A DNA stretch of 64,000 nt from Candidatus Tayloriibacteriota bacterium (GCA_003151615.1 PLXZ01000001.1:3795-67794); one strand, 5' to 3'; counted from the first letter of the stretch, positions 2,941 through 44,948 are shown. The notes: generated by a model from the letters alone, not told the origin. Numbers and translations are program-made.

Positions 2941-3432
2941 TTACGCCGTCTTTTTCTTCGCAATCTGATCGAGAGCGACGACAAATCCCTGAATCGGAGA
3001 ATTGATGACGTTGAGGAACATACCCCGGAGAGTATCGAGAGAGGGAATAAGCGCAATGCCTTCCATCTCTGCCTTTGTCATGAATTTTCCTTCAAAGACC
3101 CCGCCGACAATCGAAACACCCTGCTTGAATTTCTTCTGGAACGCGTATATTTCGCGGGCCGGAGCGATGAGATCGATTCCGTAAGCGATGCCCACTTCCC
3201 CTTCAAGGACCGGCATTTCACCGGTTATTTTCTTTCCCTCGAGAGCCTTGCGGGTGATGCTTTTCTTCGCAACGAAATAGCCGATGCCTTCGCTTTTCAG
3301 TTTTCTGCGGACTTCCGTCGCGCCGGAAACCTTCAAGCCGTGGAAATTGACGAAGACGAGGGACTGCGAATCATCCGCAATCTTGCTCACCTTGTCCAGA
3401 ATTTCCTTCTTCTGTACTTTTGTTCGTGCCAT
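2941..3432 (-). CDS. rplJ: 50S ribosomal protein L10.
   Basis: MARTKVQKKEIL...FVNFHGLKVSGATEVRRKLK is typical L10 and sits immediately upstream of rplL. A first in-frame AUG at 3453 lies inside a hairpin, so the second AUG is preferred. Confidence 0.9.
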   Translation of the reverse strand: MARTKVQKKEILDKVSKIADDSQSLVFVNFHGLKVSGATEVRRKLKSEGIGYFVAKKSITRKALEGKKITGEMPVLEGEVGIAYGIDLIAPAREIYAFQKKFKQGVSIVGGVFEGKFMTKAEMEGIALIPSLDTLRGMFLNVINSPIQGFVVALDQIAKKKTA

Positions 3433-3453
3433 TATTTGATTGTTATGCGCCAT

Positions 3454-3631
3454 GCAAAATGCACGGCGCTTCTGATAAAACTTGTGAACGACCTTTTATA
3501 AAGGCGAGTAGTGTGTCGAACGAAGCCGACTAACCTGGAAAGGACTTGTTCGCCGTCGTTTCGACGACGATGCCTTTCTTCTCGGGCCTTATGCGATATA
3601 ACATATCATAGGTGCGTTTTTTGGGCAAATA
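3454..3631 (-). promoter_or_regulatory. rplJ 5' leader with a hairpin (gcgccatgc..gcacggcgc, 3454-3476) overlapping the first AUG. Possible L10(L12)4 autoregulatory leader.
   Basis: Imperfect 9-bp inverted repeat seen in the sequence. The leader function is inferred by analogy with known L10 leaders. Confidence 0.3.
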
Positions 3632-37433: not shown

Positions 37434-38669
37434 TTAGCCCCGCAAAATCGAATCTATTTTTTTGGCCAGTTTGACGAAGTCTTTTTCAAGTTTCCCGCGC
37501 GTCGTTTCTGCGGCGGAACCGAGGCGAATACCGGATGGGTCGGTCGGAGGGCGCTTGTCAAAAGGAATTGCATTTTTATTGACGATGATGCCGGCTTTTT
37601 CCAATTTATCACTCGCCTCCTTGCCTGAAACCGCGCCGGCTCCCTTCGCATTTTTCTGACCGTTCATCCATGTGTCAACGAGAACCAAATGCGAATCCGT
37701 TCCGCCGGAAATGATTTTCCACCCGCGTTTCGTCAATTCGCCGGCAAGAGCCGTAGCATTTTTCTTGACCTGTTTCGCATATTTTTTGAAAGCCGGAGCG
37801 GCTGCTTCTTTCAAAGCCACCGCGACAGCGGCAATTTGATTGATGTGAGGACCGCCCTGGAGACCAGGAAAAACAGCCTTGTCGATTTTTGATGAAATCG
37901 AAACCGGACCATTGGTGCCATCGACATGCCGGTCGAGCCGGCTGAAAATCATAGCCGCGCGCGGACCGCGCAGTGTTTTGTGGACCGTTGTCGTGACGAT
38001 ATCAGCATATTCAAAAGGCGACGGATATTCCTTCCCCGCAACGAGTCCGGCAAAGTGCGACATATCCACCATCAAAAGCGCGGACTGACCCGTTTCATTT
38101 TTCGCCGCGTCGGCAATGTCGCGGAATTTTTTGAAATCAATGGCGCGCGGATATGCCGTAAATCCGGCGACAATGATGACCGGTTTCTCCCGCATCGCAA
38201 TTTCGCGCAATTCCCCGTAATTGAGCTGCTCCAATTTCGCATCAACACCATATGGAACCTGAACCCAGAATTTTCCGGTAGCGGAAACTTTGTGACCGTG
38301 GGTCAAATGACCTCCATGGTCGAGCGACATGCCCATGATTTTTCCTCCGGGCGGAACGAGTGCTGTGTAAACGGCCAAGTTGGCCGGCGAACCCGACAAA
38401 GGCTGCACATTCACATGCCATTTATCAGCCGACAAACCGAAAGCTTTCAATGCACGCTCAATCGCCAACATCTCGATTTTATCCACCACTTCATTGCCGC
38501 CATAGTAGCGCTTGCCCGCATACCCTTCCGCATATTTATTCGTCAGTTCCGAGCCGAGCGCATCCAAAACATCCTGCGACACATAGTTTTCCGACGCAAT
38601 CAGATTCACGACTTTTTTCTGCCGCTTTTTCTCCGCATCAATCAGTTTTTTAATGGCGGCGTCTTTCAT
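37434..38669 (-). CDS. glyA: Serine hydroxymethyltransferase.
   Basis: IASENYVS...LTNKYAEGY...GGHLTHGHKVS is the SHMT signature. Confidence 0.95.
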   Translation of the reverse strand: MKDAAIKKLIDAEKKRQKKVVNLIASENYVSQDVLDALGSELTNKYAEGYAGKRYYGGNEVVDKIEMLAIERALKAFGLSADKWHVNVQPLSGSPANLAVYTALVPPGGKIMGMSLDHGGHLTHGHKVSATGKFWVQVPYGVDAKLEQLNYGELREIAMREKPVIIVAGFTAYPRAIDFKKFRDIADAAKNETGQSALLMVDMSHFAGLVAGKEYPSPFEYADIVTTTVHKTLRGPRAAMIFSRLDRHVDGTNGPVSISSKIDKAVFPGLQGGPHINQIAAVAVALKEAAAPAFKKYAKQVKKNATALAGELTKRGWKIISGGTDSHLVLVDTWMNGQKNAKGAGAVSGKEASDKLEKAGIIVNKNAIPFDKRPPTDPSGIRLGSAAETTRGKLEKDFVKLAKKIDSILRG

Positions 38670-39633
38670 GTGAATAGCTTATCATATTTTTAATCTTGAA
38701 AGTATTTCCGTGCGTTAACATACCCAAATAAGATGCAACAGTTTCTATCTTAGGCTGATGATCAAGATTCTTAAACATTCTCTTCTTTGTAGCCGTTCTT
38801 AGAACTCTATGGTCAGGAAAATGTATCCACCCAAGGAAATCGACACCTGACGAGAACGTTTTAATGAAAACTTTATCGGGATGAAGTTTCAGGGCCAGTT
38901 TTTCTTCCAAAAATAGTGACATTTTCGGCAATATATCGAGAAGCCAATCCTTGTTCCCGCTCATCACCACAAAATCATCGGCGTATCGGATATAGTATTT
39001 TGCTTTAATCGTGTGCTTCATAAAATGGTCAAAAGCATTCATGTAGACGTTAACCAGAAGCTGCGAGGTGAGATTGCCAAGCGGTAATCCCTTTCCGTCT
39101 ACTGTACTGTGGAAACTTTTAGCCACACGTCCGATAAGCCAAATGACATCAGGATCGGTAATGTACTTTCCTACAGTATCAAGGAGTATTTTTTGATCGA
39201 TTGAAGCAAAAAACTTCCGAATATCGCACTTTAAAATCCAAAGCGTCTTTGTGTTATTCTTGCTCTCCTTTAAAGCAAAATGCTTGAATCGTTCCACTGC
39301 TCGATGTGTACCCCGTAGCTTACGGCATGAGTATGAATCATAAATAAAAGTGCGGTCAAAAAAAGGATAAAGTTCGCGATAGATTGCATGATGCAAAAGT
39401 CTGTCTCGCACACTTGCCTTATGGATATTTCGTGGCTTTGGATCAGAGATATTAAAGGCATAGTAGCCTCCATGGGTATAAGTTTTATTTTTTAAATCAG
39501 TATGTAAATCAAGAATGTTATCGGATAAACGATATTGAAACTCCTGCACATCTTTCTTGCTTCGCTTCCCTTTTAGGAATTCTTTCCACGCTTCGAGCAA
39601 ATTTTCCATAGAAATGATATTGTTGTACATCAT
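38650..39633 (-). CDS. DGR reverse transcriptase.
   Basis: RT motifs PKPRNIHKASVRDR and YADDFVV. Motif 4 is GLPLGNLTSQLLVNVYM; the xGxxxSQ form is diagnostic of DGR RTs, where group II and retron RTs have QGxxxSP. Length is 327 aa. The 3' end overlaps the glyA start by 20 nt. Confidence 0.85.
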   Translation of the reverse strand: MMYNNIISMENLLEAWKEFLKGKRSKKDVQEFQYRLSDNILDLHTDLKNKTYTHGGYYAFNISDPKPRNIHKASVRDRLLHHAIYRELYPFFDRTFIYDSYSCRKLRGTHRAVERFKHFALKESKNNTKTLWILKCDIRKFFASIDQKILLDTVGKYITDPDVIWLIGRVAKSFHSTVDGKGLPLGNLTSQLLVNVYMNAFDHFMKHTIKAKYYIRYADDFVVMSGNKDWLLDILPKMSLFLEEKLALKLHPDKVFIKTFSSGVDFLGWIHFPDHRVLRTATKKRMFKNLDHQPKIETVASYLGMLTHGNTFKIKNMISYSHERRRH

Positions 39634-39696
39634 GATTGATACAAAAATTAAGACTGATAAAGTAGCCCCCCCCCGCAGAGATTAATACCTGTTGTT

Positions 39697-40047
39697 TTGA
39701 AGCTCAAGGACACCTATGCCATATGGCAGGACTATTTAACCCATTTTCCCAAAGCTAACCGTTTTACGATTGGTTCAAAGATAGATATCCTCTTCCTCGA
39801 AGCGATCGAATACGCTTTCATCGCAAGCTATACCCATACGGCCGACAAGCATATATTCTTAAATAAAAGCATCTCTAAAGTGGATCTCATTAAGCTCCTT
39901 CTACAACTTTCGTGGGAGATAAAAGCACTCGATAACAAGAAATATATCGTGCTGTCAGAAAAATTCTCTGAAATCGGTAAGATGCTTGGAGGCTGGAAAA
40001 AGCAATTACTTAGCAAAACTCCTGAGACAAAATCTCAGGAGAAATAA
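39697..40047 (+). CDS. avd: Avd-like accessory variability determinant (four-helix-bundle / 23S rRNA intervening-sequence protein family). TTG start.
   Basis: 116 aa and basic. HFPKANRFTIGSKIDILFLEAIEYAFIASY...EIGKMLGGW resembles the Avd/TIGR02436 pattern (FPKEERYGL.SQLRRAA.S...NIAEG...L.GL). It lies between RT and TR but on the opposite strand. Confidence 0.7.
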   Translation: MKLKDTYAIWQDYLTHFPKANRFTIGSKIDILFLEAIEYAFIASYTHTADKHIFLNKSISKVDLIKLLLQLSWEIKALDNKKYIVLSEKFSEIGKMLGGWKKQLLSKTPETKSQEK

Positions 40048-40055
40048 TGATAGTG

Positions 40056-40181
40056 GCGAACAGCCAGGAAACGATAGTTGGCATTCCAATCACCGTCCCA
40101 GTTGTTGAGGTTGAGGTTCCGCTTGGAATCGTCCTTGTTGAGGTTCGGCACGTTGCGGTTGCCATTGACCTTACCAACGGA
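40056..40181 (-). repeat. DGR template repeat (TR): 126 nt, 33 adenines, AAC/AAT Asn-codon rich.
   Basis: Identical to VR except at TR-adenine positions. In-frame translation gives ...NGNRNVPNLNKDDSKRNLNLNNWDGDWNANYRFLAVR. Confidence 0.88.
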
Positions 40182-40420
40182 CCTTGTGTGAAAAACCACC
40201 CATGGCACTGCTCCCCGATAGCTTCGCGAAAGCTGCATCGAATTCGTGACATTAATCTATCACTTGGTTTCTCACACCAACTGTCTCTCTATTTTTTGAG
40301 ATCAATCCTCGAAATACTCTTTGGAAAACCTTGGTCTTCCAAACTCTCATTCCGAGGGTTGCGGACAAATTACCCAAAGCCGTGACCTTGGATTTATCAC
40401 TTGTCACTTTTCATTATATA

Positions 40421-40466
40421 TGAAAATAAAAAACCTCGCGCGACACAACTTGTGTACAACGCGAGG
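40421..40466 (-). terminator. Nested GC hairpin plus T-tract downstream of the DGR target gene. Terminator and candidate DGR target-recognition stem-loop.
   Basis: cctcgcg-[acacaa-c-ttgtgt]-cgcgagg. On the minus strand it is followed by TTTTTTATTTT. Confidence 0.6.
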
Positions 40467-40529
40467 TCTGAATTTGATGCGACCAAGGGTCCAAGATTCC
40501 AAGTGGCAAAGCGCAAGCGATGCCGATGA

Positions 40530-41288
40530 TCAAGAAACCGAGATCTGAGAGACTTTTTTGCGAACAGCCAGGAAACGATAGCTGGCACCCCAACCACCGT
40601 CCCAGCGGATGAGGTCGAGGTCCCGCCCGGAAACGCCCTCGTAGAGGTAAGGCACGTGGCGGCCGAGGCGGAGGTGCCGCTCGGAAACGTCCTTGTTGAG
40701 GTACGGCACGCAGCGGAAGCCATAGACCTTACCAACGGAGCCCAACGCAACGATCGGATACTTCCGCTGTTCTTCAGGGTTATTTTTCCCGTAAGTCAGC
40801 AGATGCTCGATCGCGGCCGGTTGCCATGGATTGGCAGTATCGTCGGTTGTAATGCCACTGACGGCATTTTCCGACGAGATGGAGCGATCGAAATGGAACA
40901 TTTTAAATTCCCACTCGTCCGCGCCGGTGTTCTTCAATGGAAATCGCTTCGCAGTGATGTCGCTGTTAGTCCAGTCGTAATTGCCGGCCTTGATCATCTC
41001 TTCGAGAGACAAGGTGCAGTCTACGACATAGACCACGATTGCGCCGACGACGGCATTGACAGTGTTCGTCACCCAGCAGGGCTCCTTGCGCAGAAATTTT
41101 TTGAGCATTTCCCACCAGGTGTTTCCGTCCTTGCCGTTCAATTTGGCGAAGAGGTCCTTGAGGACGCCGATTGCGGATTGGGCTTCTTCATTGACAATCT
41201 GGTCGAGTGATTCGAGCAGATTCAGTAACAGTCCGAGCATGATTTTCATGGTCAGTTTCCTTTCATCGCCGACTTTAGAAGTCAGCAT
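40530..41288 (-). CDS. DGR target (variable) protein with a C-terminal VR in a C-type-lectin/FGE-like context (...GFRCVPYL...WDGGWGASYRFLAVR).
   Basis: 252-aa ORF. VR is at 40559-40738. The start may be the internal MKIML at 41249. Confidence 0.8.
   Translation of the reverse strand: MLTSKVGDERKLTMKIMLGLLLNLLESLDQIVNEEAQSAIGVLKDLFAKLNGKDGNTWWEMLKKFLRKEPCWVTNTVNAVVGAIVVYVVDCTLSLEEMIKAGNYDWTNSDITAKRFPLKNTGADEWEFKMFHFDRSISSENAVSGITTDDTANPWQPAAIEHLLTYGKNNPEEQRKYPIVALGSVGKVYGFRCVPYLNKDVSERHLRLGRHVPYLYEGVSGRDLDLIRWDGGWGASYRFLAVRKKVSQISVS
40559..40738 (-). repeat. DGR variable repeat (VR): 180 nt, equal to TR plus a 54-nt internal tandem duplication.
   Basis: About 31 substitutions against TR at TR-A sites, and one elsewhere (ccg to cct). 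Confidence 0.88.
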
Positions 41289-41325
41289 TTGTTTTTTGTT
41301 GAGCTAGAGGGCTACCTTATCGCCA

Positions 41326-41385
41326 TAGCTTAGAGACGCCCATCTTTTTGAGCAGCTTTAAGCTATGGCGATCGTTCGCAAAATC
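41326..41385. promoter_or_regulatory. 14-bp perfect inverted repeat (atcgccatagctta ... taagctatggcgat) with a ~29-nt spacer, upstream of the DGR target gene.
   Basis: Seen directly in the sequence. Function unknown; it could be an operator or a 5'-UTR structure. Confidence 0.35.
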
Positions 41386-41439
41386 AAAGAACTTACAGGT
41401 GTATTGTACACCATTAGTATGGCATCTGTCAATGGTAAG

Positions 41440-41470
41440 AAAAAAGCCCTTAATGAAGGGCTTTTTTGAT
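41440..41470 (-). terminator. Bidirectional rho-independent terminator after rplE.
   Basis: aaaaaagcccttaatgaagggcttttttg. Confidence 0.7.
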
Positions 41471-41490
41471 TAAAAACGCTTTTTTATAGT

Positions 41491-42063
41491 CTATTTCGCC
41501 TTTCCTGCCTTCACCTCTTCTTTCTTGAACGGAAAACCGAGATGTTCCAAAAATGCGAGTGTCTGAACCTTGTCGTTTGATGAAGTCACGACCGTGAGAG
41601 CCATTCCGAAAACATCGCGGAGATCTTCGTCTGATGTTTCAGCGAAAATGGTGTGCTCGCGGATGCCGAGGGTGTAATTGCCCATTTCGTCGACTGCGGT
41701 TCGCGTTATGCCGCGGAAGTCCTTTGTGCGGGGCAATGAAATGTGGACAAGCCGGTCAAGAAAATCATTCATGCGTTTGCCGCGGAGGGTTATCTGGAAA
41801 CCAACAGGGTCGCCGGTGCGGACCTTGAATGTTGCGATCGATTTCTTCGCGCCGCGAAGAGCAGGCTTTTGGCCCGTGATTTTCGCCAATCGGTCTGCGA
41901 CGAGTTCGATTTTCTTTTTGTCCTTGATCGAGCCGATACCCGCGGAAACGACGACTTTCAAAAGTCGAGGCGACTGCATTGGATTTGTATAGCCGAATTT
42001 CGGCTGAAGCGTTTTGTATGCGCTCTTTTCCAAATCTTTGATTGTTGTGTGTGATGTTTTCAT
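41491..42063 (-). CDS. rplE: 50S ribosomal protein L5.
   Basis: Typical L5 sequence (LLKVVVSAGIG...GAKKSIATFKVRTGDPVG). Confidence 0.93.
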   Translation of the reverse strand: MKTSHTTIKDLEKSAYKTLQPKFGYTNPMQSPRLLKVVVSAGIGSIKDKKKIELVADRLAKITGQKPALRGAKKSIATFKVRTGDPVGFQITLRGKRMNDFLDRLVHISLPRTKDFRGITRTAVDEMGNYTLGIREHTIFAETSDEDLRDVFGMALTVVTSSNDKVQTLAFLEHLGFPFKKEEVKAGKAK

Positions 42064-42064
42064 A

Positions 42065-42283
42065 TTATTTCTTCAGCGCGACGTTTGAAACGTCAATCGG
42101 CATAGCCTGGTCGACAACCTGACCTTTCTGGCCTTCCTTGCGGGGTCGCATATGCTTTTTGACGAGGTTAAGACCTTCGACGATGACTTTGCCGTCGCGA
42201 GGAAAAGACTTCGAGACCTTTCCCGTCTTGCCCTTGTCCTTTCCCGTAAGGATTATTACATTGTCGTTTTTCTTGATGGTCAT
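42065..42283 (-). CDS. rplX: 50S ribosomal protein L24.
   Basis: [20 protein letters not shown], with KOW motif. Confidence 0.93.
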
Positions 42284-42289
42284 AAATTT

Positions 42290-42661
42290 TTATACAATCT
42301 CCGGCGCTTTTGAGGCGATGGTCTGGTAACCGCGTTCCGACAATTCGCGAGGAATCGGGCCGAAGATGCGTCCGGCAATCGGCTCCTTCGTACCCTTTGT
42401 CAAAATGACGACTGAGTTTTCATCGAATCGCACGTATGATCCGTCCTTGCGGCGGAATGGCTTGCGCTGGCGGACGACGACGGCCTGGAGAACATCCTTC
42501 TTTTTGATGGTCTTGCGGGGTTCGGCCTTCTGAACGGAGAGGACCACGAGATCGCCGATTTCAGCATAGCGCTTCTTCGAAGAGCCAAGCACCTTGAAAA
42601 TACGGCCGATTTTGGCGCCGCAGTTGTCAGTTATTCGTACGATTGAGCGTGGCTGTATCAT
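42290..42661 (-). CDS. rplN: 50S ribosomal protein L14.
   Basis: MIQPRSIVRITDNCGAK... Confidence 0.95.
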   Translation of the reverse strand: MIQPRSIVRITDNCGAKIGRIFKVLGSSKKRYAEIGDLVVLSVQKAEPRKTIKKKDVLQAVVVRQRKPFRRKDGSYVRFDENSVVILTKGTKEPIAGRIFGPIPRELSERGYQTIASKAPEIV

Positions 42662-42665
42662 AAAT

Positions 42666-42941
42666 TTATTCTGCTATTTTAAAAGACTTGTGTCGTGAAA
42701 TAGGTCGGCATGATTCGATCGTAACCTTGTCCCCCACCTTTTTGGTGTTTCCGGGATTGTGGACCTTGTAGCGCTTCGAAAGATTCATGAACTTGTGATA
42801 TTTCTCGTTTTTCACATAGCGTTCGACCAAAACAACAACCGTATCCTTCATTTTGTCGGACACGACAACGCCACTCAAAGTTTTTCGCTTTGGAGCTTCC
42901 GCCTGCACGGTCGTTTTTGTTGTCTTTTTAGTGTCAGTCAT
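42666..42941 (-). CDS. rpsQ: 30S ribosomal protein S17.
   Basis: LSGVVVSDKMKDTVVVLVERYVKNEKYHKF... Confidence 0.93.
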   Translation of the reverse strand: MTDTKKTTKTTVQAEAPKRKTLSGVVVSDKMKDTVVVLVERYVKNEKYHKFMNLSKRYKVHNPGNTKKVGDKVTIESCRPISRHKSFKIAE

Positions 42942-42982
42942 TGGTGTTGATTTATATCACGTATCCTCTATCTATTCAAGTT

Positions 42983-43420
42983 TTACGCTCCCATTACCGC
43001 TCGGTTGATAATTTTCGTCTTGACGGAAATTTTCGTGCCGGCCTTTCGCAATGCTTCCAACGCCGTTTTGTCGTCCACGCCGTCGATTTCAAAAAGAATT
43101 CGGCCGGCCTTTACCGGAGCAACGAATCCGACCGGATCTCCCTTACCCTTTCCGAGCTTTACTTCGGCTGGTTTCTGGGTGAATGGTCGGTCCGGAAAGA
43201 CGCGAACCCATACTTTTCCGGACTTTGTGGCATATCGAGCCATGACTTTTCGCGCAGCTTCGATTTCATTCGACGACAAACGTCCGTACGCGAGAGCCTT
43301 CAATCCGAATGATCCGAACGAGAGGTGCGTACCACGCGTTTCAACAGCCACCGCGAGTTTCTTCGCGTTCTTGCGGCCGGTATGCCATTTTCGGAATTTT
43401 ACTTTTTTAGGGAATAACAT
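42983..43420 (-). CDS. rplP: 50S ribosomal protein L16.
   Basis: MLFPKKVKFRKWHTGR...FGSFGLKA... Confidence 0.95.
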   Translation of the reverse strand: MLFPKKVKFRKWHTGRKNAKKLAVAVETRGTHLSFGSFGLKALAYGRLSSNEIEAARKVMARYATKSGKVWVRVFPDRPFTQKPAEVKLGKGKGDPVGFVAPVKAGRILFEIDGVDDKTALEALRKAGTKISVKTKIINRAVMGA

Positions 43421-43440
43421 GGTAGTGATTTATATGAAAA

Positions 43441-44163
43441 TTATTTGAATTTTTGCGTCGGAGCGGCACCTGTTTGCGTCGTTTTCGCGAGATTCGCAGC
43501 CATGTCCTTCGCGAAAATCTCTCCTTTATATATCCAGACCTTTATACCGATGTCGCCGTAGGTCATGTGGGCCTTTTCGCGTGCGAATTCGATGTCTGCA
43601 CGCATTGTTTGAAGAGGAATACGACCCTTTTTGAGGTCTTCCTGACGTGCCATTTCAGCACCACCGAGTCGTCCCGACAATTTGATGCGGGCACCCTGGA
43701 CTTCGCGGTTTGCCATGACTTTCTCCAATGCCTGCTTCACAACGCGGCGGAATGGAAGGCGCTTTTCGAGACCTTCAGCGACCATCAAACCGACGATAGC
43801 CGAGTTTGCTTCAGGATTTCGGACTTCCTCGATGTCCATCTTCAATTCTTGGCCTGAGAGGTCAACTCCTCGCTTTTTGAGCTGCTTCATGACTTTCTCG
43901 CGGAGCTTTACGATACCGTCACCCGCGCGGCCGATGATCATACCCGGTCGTGATGAACGGATAATGATGCGGAGGGCCTTCTGATTTCGCTCGATTGCAA
44001 TGTCGGAAAGATAGAATGCGCGCAATTCCTTCGTCAAAAACTCACGGATAACAATGTCAGCCTTCAAATAGTTGCGGTATTGCTTGTCCACGCCGAACCA
44101 GCGGCTCTTCCAGTCGCGAATGATTCCAAGTCTATGTGCATATGGGTGTACGGAGTGTGACAT
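43441..44163 (-). CDS. rpsC: 30S ribosomal protein S3.
   Basis: KH domain and S3 C-terminal blocks (GIIRDWKSRWFG...). Confidence 0.95.
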   Translation of the reverse strand: MSHSVHPYAHRLGIIRDWKSRWFGVDKQYRNYLKADIVIREFLTKELRAFYLSDIAIERNQKALRIIIRSSRPGMIIGRAGDGIVKLREKVMKQLKKRGVDLSGQELKMDIEEVRNPEANSAIVGLMVAEGLEKRLPFRRVVKQALEKVMANREVQGARIKLSGRLGGAEMARQEDLKKGRIPLQTMRADIEFAREKAHMTYGDIGIKVWIYKGEIFAKDMAANLAKTTQTGAAPTQKFK

Positions 44164-44164
44164 G

Positions 44165-44566
44165 TTATTTTTTTTGTGTTTTTTCTGTTTTTACAATCGC
44201 CGGTCGTCCCCATCGTCGGAGCTTCGCGGGCTTTTCAGCAATCGGAGCGAGAGTGATCATGACGTTGCTTGAACGCTTGTTGATTCGTGAAGCACTGCCG
44301 CGTGCTCGTGGCATCGATCGCTTCAACGTAACTCCCCCGTCAACGCGGATTTCCTTTATAAAAAGACCGGCTGATTCGATATTAAAATTGTTTTTTGCGT
44401 TGGCGATTGCCGATGCGAGGAGCGCGCCGAGAGGACCGGTTGCCTTCTTCGGAAGGAATTTAAGCATGCTCGCCGCCTCGACGACTGATTTGCCGCGCAT
44501 GAGGTTAGCCGTGCCGCGGACCTTGCGGGGAGACTGTCGATAGTTGTGGAGTGATGCTGTGATCAT
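44165..44566 (-). CDS. rplV: 50S ribosomal protein L22, with a C-terminal basic extension.
   Basis: SPRKVRGTANLMRGKSVVEAASMLKF...KRSMPRARGSASRINKRSSNVMITL. Confidence 0.9.
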   Translation of the reverse strand: MITASLHNYRQSPRKVRGTANLMRGKSVVEAASMLKFLPKKATGPLGALLASAIANAKNNFNIESAGLFIKEIRVDGGVTLKRSMPRARGSASRINKRSSNVMITLAPIAEKPAKLRRWGRPAIVKTEKTQKK

Positions 44567-44579
44567 ATATATATATAAA

Positions 44580-44948
44580 TTATTTGGCGCCAGGCTTAGC
44601 TGTCGCACCCGGTGCGGATCCGGCCGCTTCCTTCGCTGATTTTGCGGCATTGATTTCAGCTTCCTTCTGCTTCATTTCCAATTCCTTCTGCATCTTTCCT
44701 CCGTGTCGGTTGAATTTGCGCGTAGGCGAAAATTCACCGAGGCGGTGTCCAACCATGTCCTCGGTGATCAAAACTTCCAAATGTTGTCGTCCGTTATACA
44801 CGCCGAATGTGAACCCAATCATTTCCGGCGCAATCTGGGATCGGCGATACCATGTTTTAATAACCCCTGTTTCCAGAGGTTTTTTGCCTGAAATCTTTTT
44901 GAGGAGTCGTTCTTCAACGAACGGACCCTTATACAGTGAACGTGACAT
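44580..44948 (-). CDS. rpsS: 30S ribosomal protein S19, with a C-terminal Lys/Ala-rich extension.
   Basis: [18 protein letters not shown]...[18 protein letters not shown]. Confidence 0.93.

Follow-up and report, generated by a model that had tools for sequence, protein, structure and literature searches.

The locus described here raises the question of how the TR RNA of a DGR is produced and primed when the avd gene, placed between TR and the RT gene, is encoded on the opposite strand, and whether the transcription of avd and that of TR interfere with each other. The priming mechanism of DGRs is known from one phage element, in which the accessory RNA lies 3' of TR. The DGRs of the ultra-small candidate phyla radiation (CPR) bacteria cannot use this BPP-1 layout unchanged, because avd occupies the 3' space on the other strand. 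The locus was found in a 64-kb stretch of DNA, referred to below as the window. A preliminary description had placed the target gene with its VR, the TR and the RT gene on the minus strand and avd on the plus strand between TR and RT, and this placement is borne out by the coordinates.

The RT gene (38650-39633, minus strand) encodes a DGR reverse transcriptase of 327 aa, which matched RVT_1 in a profile search (E-value = 5.5e-24) and whose translation shows LGNLTSQ and YADD. The motif [LIV]GxxxSQ, together with the catalytic YxDD, is the hallmark of the RTs of the DGR family. Repeat search and TR/VR alignment placed a TR of 126 nt at 40056-40181, with the minus strand as the adenine-bearing strand, and a VR of 180 nt at 40560-40739 on the same strand. 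The VR forms the C-terminal end of a target gene of 252 aa identified by ORF call (40530-41288, minus strand; no Pfam or NCBIfam match) and stops 30 nt short of its stop codon. Between TR and VR, 30-32 substitutions fall at minus-strand TR adenines and one at a non-A position, and the final 22 nt (CTATCGTTTCCTGGCTGTTCGC), the same in both, are a candidate IMH-like segment. The avd ORF, first given as 116 aa from a TTG (39697-40047, plus strand), is convergent with TR. Its stop codon TAA occupies 40045-40047 and TR/VR homology begins at 40056, which leaves the 8 nt originally reported between avd and the TR boundary, and the sequence 3' of TR is indeed antisense to avd and contains a hairpin. 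Within the 64-kb window there is one Avd, one RT and one VR, with no second copy of any of them and no conventional same-strand avd. A motif-bearing RT, adenine-specific TR/VR differences and a VR at the 3' end of a coding target, which are features of DGR membership, are all present, and the core order TR-(avd)-RT, in which parentheses denote the reverse strand, is that of architecture B3 (Wu et al. 2018, NAR 46:11, PMC5758913). We have hardly any doubt that the locus is a standard Patescibacteria/CPR DGR of architecture B3, [target-VR]-[TR]-(avd)-[RT].

Several features around this core were also recorded. The VR is 54 nt (18 codons) longer than the TR, with TR positions of about 21-81 present twice. 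There are 10 differences between the two copies, and an alignment of VR to TR in two registers leaves one non-adenine mismatch only; by sequence comparison, a template jump of the RT or repeated homing would account for this better than a simple duplication of the DNA. Length differences between TR and VR do occur according to the text of Wu et al. (2018, PMC5758913). The region upstream of the target (41319-41372 and 41403-41432, minus strand) contains a promoter that agrees with the consensus at 11 of 12 positions (TTGACA-18-TACAAT). An inverted repeat of 24 nt, with 83% complementarity and a spacer of 6 nt, separates it from the start of the target gene and may be a regulatory hairpin or an operator. 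The DGR sits among housekeeping genes (38650-38669 and 41491-44650): the 3' end of RT and the start of an SHMT (glyA-like) gene share 20 nt, and the target gene comes after a ribosomal-protein cluster, for which L5, L24, L14, S17, L16, S3, L22 and S19 are candidates by ORF translation alone. An association of CPR DGRs with ribosomal protein genes is reported in the text of Wu et al. (2018, PMC5758913).

The gene layout had been called non-canonical, a label that is valid against the Bordetella prototype only. Comparison with the DGR catalogues, which had been proposed, showed that the layout is already defined as B3, and about 90% of CPR DGRs have this architecture in the account of Wu et al. 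(2018, PMC5758913). Our search retrieved more than 8000 relatives of the RT, with names including Patescibacteria, Nomurabacteria, Kaiserbacteria, Taylorbacteria and Paceibacterota, and the best 80 genome loci among them were surveyed. An avd homologue lies directly upstream of RT on the opposite strand in 75 of these 80 best loci; the remaining five comprise three without upstream sequence, one without avd and one that is rearranged (L043). In about 60 of the surveyed loci the TR, whose mismatches are at A only, ends at a distance of 2-35 nt from the avd stop, and the VR is mostly 250-460 nt upstream. The counterpart of the window in Roux et al. 2021 is DGR clade 2, which is restricted to Patescibacteria, and the window shares with the CPR B3 DGRs the order and orientation of TR, avd and RT, the position of the target upstream on the TR strand, the host group (Patescibacteria, Paceibacterota and Kaiserbacteria names) and the chromosomal location, with no difference in gene layout. 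It is an ordinary member of the B3 class. According to the catalogue, CPR DGRs normally have avd reversed in this place, and the original finding as stated adds nothing to this. In the available text of Wu et al. (2018, PMC5758913), the word 'promoter' is absent and no upstream structured leader or avd repeat tract is described.

In the rearranged locus (L043, 1400-4500), the module of target/VR, leader, TR, stem-loop and (avd) is intact yet inverted relative to RT. TR and RT there lie on opposite strands, so that co-transcription of the two is impossible, and the VR is still A-mutagenised. The avd of this locus has a plain ATG start, a promoter TTGACA-17-TACATT and no repeat tract (PLP replaces PPP).

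The identity of the plus-strand ORF was assessed by profiles and by its predicted fold. The ORF 39697-40047 scored 46.1 bits against Pfam bAvd (PF22296), whose curated cut-off is 40, and 57 bits against NCBIfam DivGenRetAVD, under the equivalog cut-off of 80. PF22296 was present in all 343 of the 343 Avd homologues found, several of which, from Patescibacteria, are named 'four helix bundle protein'. An AlphaFold monomer model based on 47 homologues (pLDDT 91, pTM 0.81) has four helices, and residues 108-116 form a disordered tail. A sequence search of the PDB gave no match for Avd, so that a comparison of folds was needed, and Foldseek with the model returned the IVS-protein/Avd fold, including Bordetella Avd 4dwl (TM 0.75-0.83, rmsd about 2 Å) and the DGR RNP 8ub7. 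Judged by this modelled fold, the ORF is a genuine avd, as the preliminary description had supposed, and a four-helix bundle with a TM of about 0.8 to 4dwl is a point of likeness to BPP-1. Avd proteins bind RT and RNA as a pentameric barrel. With this fold, and with no same-strand avd in the window, neither of the two outcomes that were to refute the preliminary description was observed.

The hairpin 3' of TR was first described as 7 bp at 40021-40039 and as overlapping the avd stop. It is present on the minus strand, but extends over 40019-40041 with nine Watson-Crick pairs and one G-U (CTCCTGAGA(T)/(G)TCTCAGGAG), that is 9-10 bp, around a UUU loop. It begins 15 nt 3' of TR, stands opposite Avd codons 108-115 and lies inside the avd ORF, 3 nt short of the stop codon. 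Its stability is -15.3 kcal/mol (z = -4.2), which none of 200 shuffled sequences equalled. Of 73 loci, 55 have CTCC...GGAG stems followed by TTTTGTTTT at the same site according to a pattern scan. From 37 of these a covariance model (R1) was made, which gave one match per locus in 66 of 81 sources, right after TR and on the RT strand, with one weak extra match in 618 kb; in the window it has a single match of 59 bits. An equivalent stem-loop stands about 15 nt after TR in 65 related loci, and in 62 loci the TR-VR homology ends 3-8 nt into the R1 match. In the stem alignment, which was fitted to the model and therefore favours pairing, 97% of cells are paired, eight of nine pairs show compensatory changes, and the covariation is 0.61 (0.20 in shuffles and at most 0.11 for slid partners). 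The loops measure 3-8 nt, commonly 4-5 nt, and are U-rich, neither UNCG nor GNRA. The Avd-binding stem-loop of Handa et al. is characterised by a tetraloop cap and by flipped-out bases that Avd contacts.

G-U and A-C type pairs occur in a ratio of 50:3 on the TR strand, and this excess indicates that the structure is selected in the TR-strand RNA, not in the avd mRNA and not as a cruciform. Measured from the avd stop, the hairpin stands between -42 and +14 nt in different loci, which shows that it does not arise from the coding of Avd. At the Avd C-terminus, the near-invariant 'NKTP' is the reverse complement of GGAG-UUUUGUU, and this part of the protein is disordered. We are highly confident that the stem-loop functions as an RNA element on the TR strand. 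Such an element is already anticipated in the literature: Handa et al. (10.1101/2023.10.23.563531) report, in the text available, putative Avd-binding stem-loops just 3' of TR in 207 of 278 Avd-DGRs, with CPR members among them and 9 bp as a common length, and in Bordetella an 11-bp stem-loop directly 3' of TR (Sp 3-33) that is gripped by all five Avd protomers. By analogy, the hairpin of the window fits this description and is a candidate for the same element. It also looks like an intrinsic terminator. The stem is followed by a U-tract (40010-40018, minus strand) that reads UUUUGCUAA in the window and UUUUGUUUU in most relatives, and is weaker in the window than in relatives; at least six T occur in the 9 nt after the stem in 55 of 73 relatives. 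The terminator scan lists the hairpin on the minus strand (10 pairs, 5 G-C, TTTTGCTAAG), as one of two terminators found in 38400-41600 against 3.2 expected, a number not above chance, and this listing is given no weight by itself. We lean slightly towards the TR RNA ending at this U-tract.

On the other side of TR, a terminator-like hairpin of the target (40424-40467, minus strand; ACCTCGCG...CGCGAGGT followed by a T-run) parts the target gene from the TR unit; it was recognised by sequence reading and is similar in the aligned relatives. From this hairpin to TR, about 55 loci share a conserved stretch of about 225 nt. The predicted promoter of the TR RNA has a -10 box TATAAT at 40414-40419 (minus strand), which keeps a fixed distance to the conserved block in about 55 loci, and relatives show an extended -10 of the form tTGnTAnAAT, with the conserved RNA beginning 6-8 nt downstream of it. 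A -35 box could not be made out for this promoter, and the consensus scan of 38400-41600 did not report the -10 site.

Alignment by MAFFT and analysis by RNAalifold revealed a structured 5' leader at 40182-40408 (minus strand), composed of helices P1 (40393-40384/40381-40372), P2 (40356-40333/40330-40308), P3 (40277-40266/40197-40186), P4 (40262-40259/40250-40247) and P5 (40233-40227/40214-40210). Its consensus has 48 pairs with 95.6% of cells paired, and 41 of the 48 pairs show compensatory changes (681 compensatory cells vs. 191 in shuffles); the covariation is 0.805, compared with 0.305 in shuffles and at most 0.20 when slid. In P3, the 12 nt next to the 5' end of TR are paired with a segment of the leader, and compensatory change is seen in 10 of its 12 bp. 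Several invariant G-U pairs fix the strand of the leader, and the single-sequence fold of the window agrees with the helices. The leader is quite probably a functional part of the TR RNA. Rfam 15, which would cover the RT-associated motifs described by Weinberg et al. 2017 provided that it contains them, gave no match for leader or stem-loop at E<=1 in 38400-41600 of the window or at E<=0.1 in six related loci. Within Rfam 15, the open-access literature and the available text of Wu et al. (2018) and of the Handa preprint, the structured leader and the avd repeat tract considered below appear to be undescribed.

The same analysis was applied to the sequence antisense to avd. RNAalifold found 0 pairs in the 150 nt after the U-tract and 2 in the next 150 nt, as in coding controls, compared with 58 in the leader. 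A systematic column-pair scan for covarying helices between leader and 3' flank returned the known helices only, and no priming site or template:primer duplex was identified in the locus. A pairing of leader AAAUGAAGA with flank UCUUCAUUU, noticed by eye in the main group, was rejected, as it shows no covariation in the subgroup of the window and the column-pair scan was negative.

Our reading is that the locus, a B3 DGR, makes a permuted TR RNA, with its own promoter, a leader and a stem-loop/U-tract end, and we assign it a probability of about 0.65 overall. The TR RNA would be a separate transcript of about 400 nt, with predicted ends at about 40408 and about 40010, made up of a promoter near 40419, the structured leader, TR, and the stem-loop with a U-tract ending near 40010. 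Its 3' stem-loop would be the counterpart of the Avd-binding Sp 3-33 of Bordetella, doubling as an intrinsic terminator, while the RT-binding and stop functions of the Bordetella Sp would fall to the 5' leader, with P3 as the candidate stop duplex. The avd mRNA and the TR RNA, being convergent, would overlap in the last 35-40 nt of avd only, which encode the disordered tail of Avd; no avd-strand terminator was found before TR. To the question of how the TR RNA is made, the likely answer is thus an RNA with its own promoter, leader and stem-loop/U-tract end, and nothing conserved was found further antisense to avd.

There is a precedent in Trichodesmium erythraeum, where a promoter of the TR itself drives a discrete and abundant ncRNA of 265 nt, separately from the RT gene (Pfreundt et al. 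2014, PMC4143802). That DGR differs in belonging to another clade and in having many remote targets, nor is a reversed avd that overlaps its RNA at the 3' end described for it. In Bordetella, according to the available text of Handa et al. (2018; 10.1101/2023.10.23.563531), the essential accessory RNA is the 140-nt Sp 3' of TR, and the partner strand of the cPRT Stop comes from this 3' spacer. The window resembles BPP-1 in having a stem-loop of about 10 bp directly 3' of TR (Sp 3-33 there, 40041-40019 here) and a duplex abutting the 5' end of TR (cPRT Stop there, P3 here). It differs in that avd of BPP-1 is on the same strand upstream of TR, and in that the stop duplex of BPP-1 combines upstream and downstream sequence, whereas here the partner of the TR-proximal strand lies upstream. 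Conserved structure 5' of TR and a U-tract after the stem-loop, with no structure found further 3', also set the window apart from BPP-1.

The alternative that survives best is a Bordetella-like RNA, which we nevertheless consider unlikely. The TR transcript would then pass the stem-loop and run antisense through avd, perhaps into RT, and the priming site, a strand of the stop duplex and the RT-binding elements would all be located there; the stem-loop would be an Avd-binding element only, and the leader would serve stability or regulation. That all essential accessory RNA of Bordetella is contained in the 140 nt 3' of TR speaks for such an arrangement, as do the imperfect U-tract of the window and the result that no convincing, independent RT promoter was found. 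Conserved duplexes of the 'cPRT Stop' type between upstream and downstream sequence are moreover inferred by Handa et al., in the text available, in the same 207 DGRs, CPR included, and, if this holds for CPR, they need RNA past the stem-loop. However, the 300 nt antisense to avd contain no more conserved pairing than coding controls, and the conserved Avd 'LGGW' codons stand at differing distances from the stem-loop in the loci compared. The segment abutting the 5' end of TR pairs with the leader in P3, not with downstream sequence, and TR and RT of L043 lie on opposite strands.

The position of the avd start was also reconsidered. The TTG at 39697, at which the preliminary description started avd, is probably wrong. 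The avd frame stays open upstream of it and reads SSPPPQRLIPVV, which is conserved, with no start codon before RLIPVV (39679-39696), and avd homologues start upstream of a C-tract, which in the window is a C9 homopolymer at 39666-39674 (plus strand; G9 on the RT strand). Because the upstream frame is open and the homologues begin there, what was taken as a 63-nt divergent gap is most likely 5' coding sequence of avd. From reading frame and homologues, the true start is probably ATG 39632, giving a probable 5' extension of 39632-39696 (plus strand), and within the sequence CATG this ATG overlaps the start of RT, which is on the other strand. The frame from ATG 39632 reads MIDTKIKTDKVAPP and stops after 17 codons, because C9 shifts the frame; a C10 or C7 would yield a 138-aa Avd resembling P0128. 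Long Avd homologues cross the tract, where poly-C is read as PPP, (AG)n as RERE and (AC)n as THTH, and RLIPVV, between the tract and the TTG, is kept at the protein level, with many synonymous codon differences by reading.

The interval between avd and RT carries a G-tract (RT strand) in almost every locus, and (CT)n, (GA)n or (GT)n in a few. A tract is present in 70 of 73 related loci, 64 of them with poly-C of 6-13 nt (mode 9-10). The nearest open upstream ATG is in frame 0, 1 and 2 in 21, 28 and 19 loci, respectively, and ATGs within 21 nt are enriched (34 observed, 16.5 ± 3.5 expected). In two lineages, contigs with identical RT differ only in tract length ((CT)9/10/11, and G9 vs. G10), and tract length is monomorphic in four other lineages. 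The contig groups P0009, P0002 and P0071 contain few contigs, all identical, and P0071 is without a tract. These patterns in the sequences suggest that Avd may be phase-variable, with the tract as a contingency locus gating Avd; the alternatives for the tract variation are homopolymer assembly error and transcriptional slippage. A further locus (L058, about 3300-3500) has an N gap and a homopolymer run of about 40 nt at the avd/RT tract site. A gap at the tract calls for caution with tract lengths taken from MAG consensus, and the tract seems to break or confuse assemblies.

Known contingency loci with simple sequence repeats (Neisseria, Haemophilus, Campylobacter; poly-G/C or dinucleotide tracts in 5' coding sequence) have the same kind of tract just after the start codon, a 6-13 nt homopolymer or a dinucleotide repeat, with frames spread about evenly over the three possibilities among genomes and length variants in otherwise identical contigs. 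The present case differs in its CPR host, in concerning a DGR accessory gene and in being known from sequences alone, and the comparison is tempered by RNA-polymerase slippage or internal starts, which could bypass the avd frameshift. No paper linking DGRs to a repeat-tract switch was found in the open-access literature. The G-tract was also considered purely as a promoter-spacer switch for RT, as a -10-like TAnnnT often stands after it. This was rejected, because protein conservation on both sides and the PLP of L043 put the tract inside avd coding sequence. It may have a dual role, coding and as a spacer of an RT promoter.

The frameshift also bears on a second alternative, namely that the cassette is switched off or decaying in this genome and its odd features are damage, which we hold to be quite improbable. 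ATG 39632 is thrown out of frame at C9 and meets a stop after 17 codons, the avd frame has no start codon before RLIPVV, and the VR exceeds the TR by 54 nt, all of which could be taken as decay. Yet RT, the Avd core, TR, leader and stem-loop are all intact, the VR/TR differences fall almost only at adenines, TTG 39697 could still yield the core Avd, and about two thirds of the relatives are 'off' in the same reversible manner, a better fit to a switch than to decay. That the hairpin belongs to the avd strand, as an element of the avd mRNA or its terminator, or forms a DNA cruciform, is very hard to credit, for although it lies within the 3' end of the avd ORF and an inverted repeat is symmetric in DNA, the 50 G-U pairs of the TR strand (vs. 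3 A-C) are mismatches on the avd strand, the stem precedes the avd stop in most loci, which would place termination inside the ORF, and no T-run stands behind the stem on the avd strand.

If the permuted TR RNA is extended to the whole B3 class, a 5' domain of about 225 nt would replace the 3' spacer, with the stop duplex upstream, an Avd-stem-loop/terminator overprinted on the 3' end of avd, and an avd repeat gating activity, i.e. one mutator switched by another; this generalisation is offered tentatively, at somewhat short of even odds. CPR are the largest natural reservoir of DGRs, and the leader, P3 and the stem-loop/U-tract delimit an RNA (about 40408 to 40010) with which a CPR complex of RT, Avd and RNA could be reconstituted in vitro. 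If the avd tract is a real switch, hypermutation would be on only in subpopulations of these reduced genomes, which would matter for DGR activity in metagenomes.
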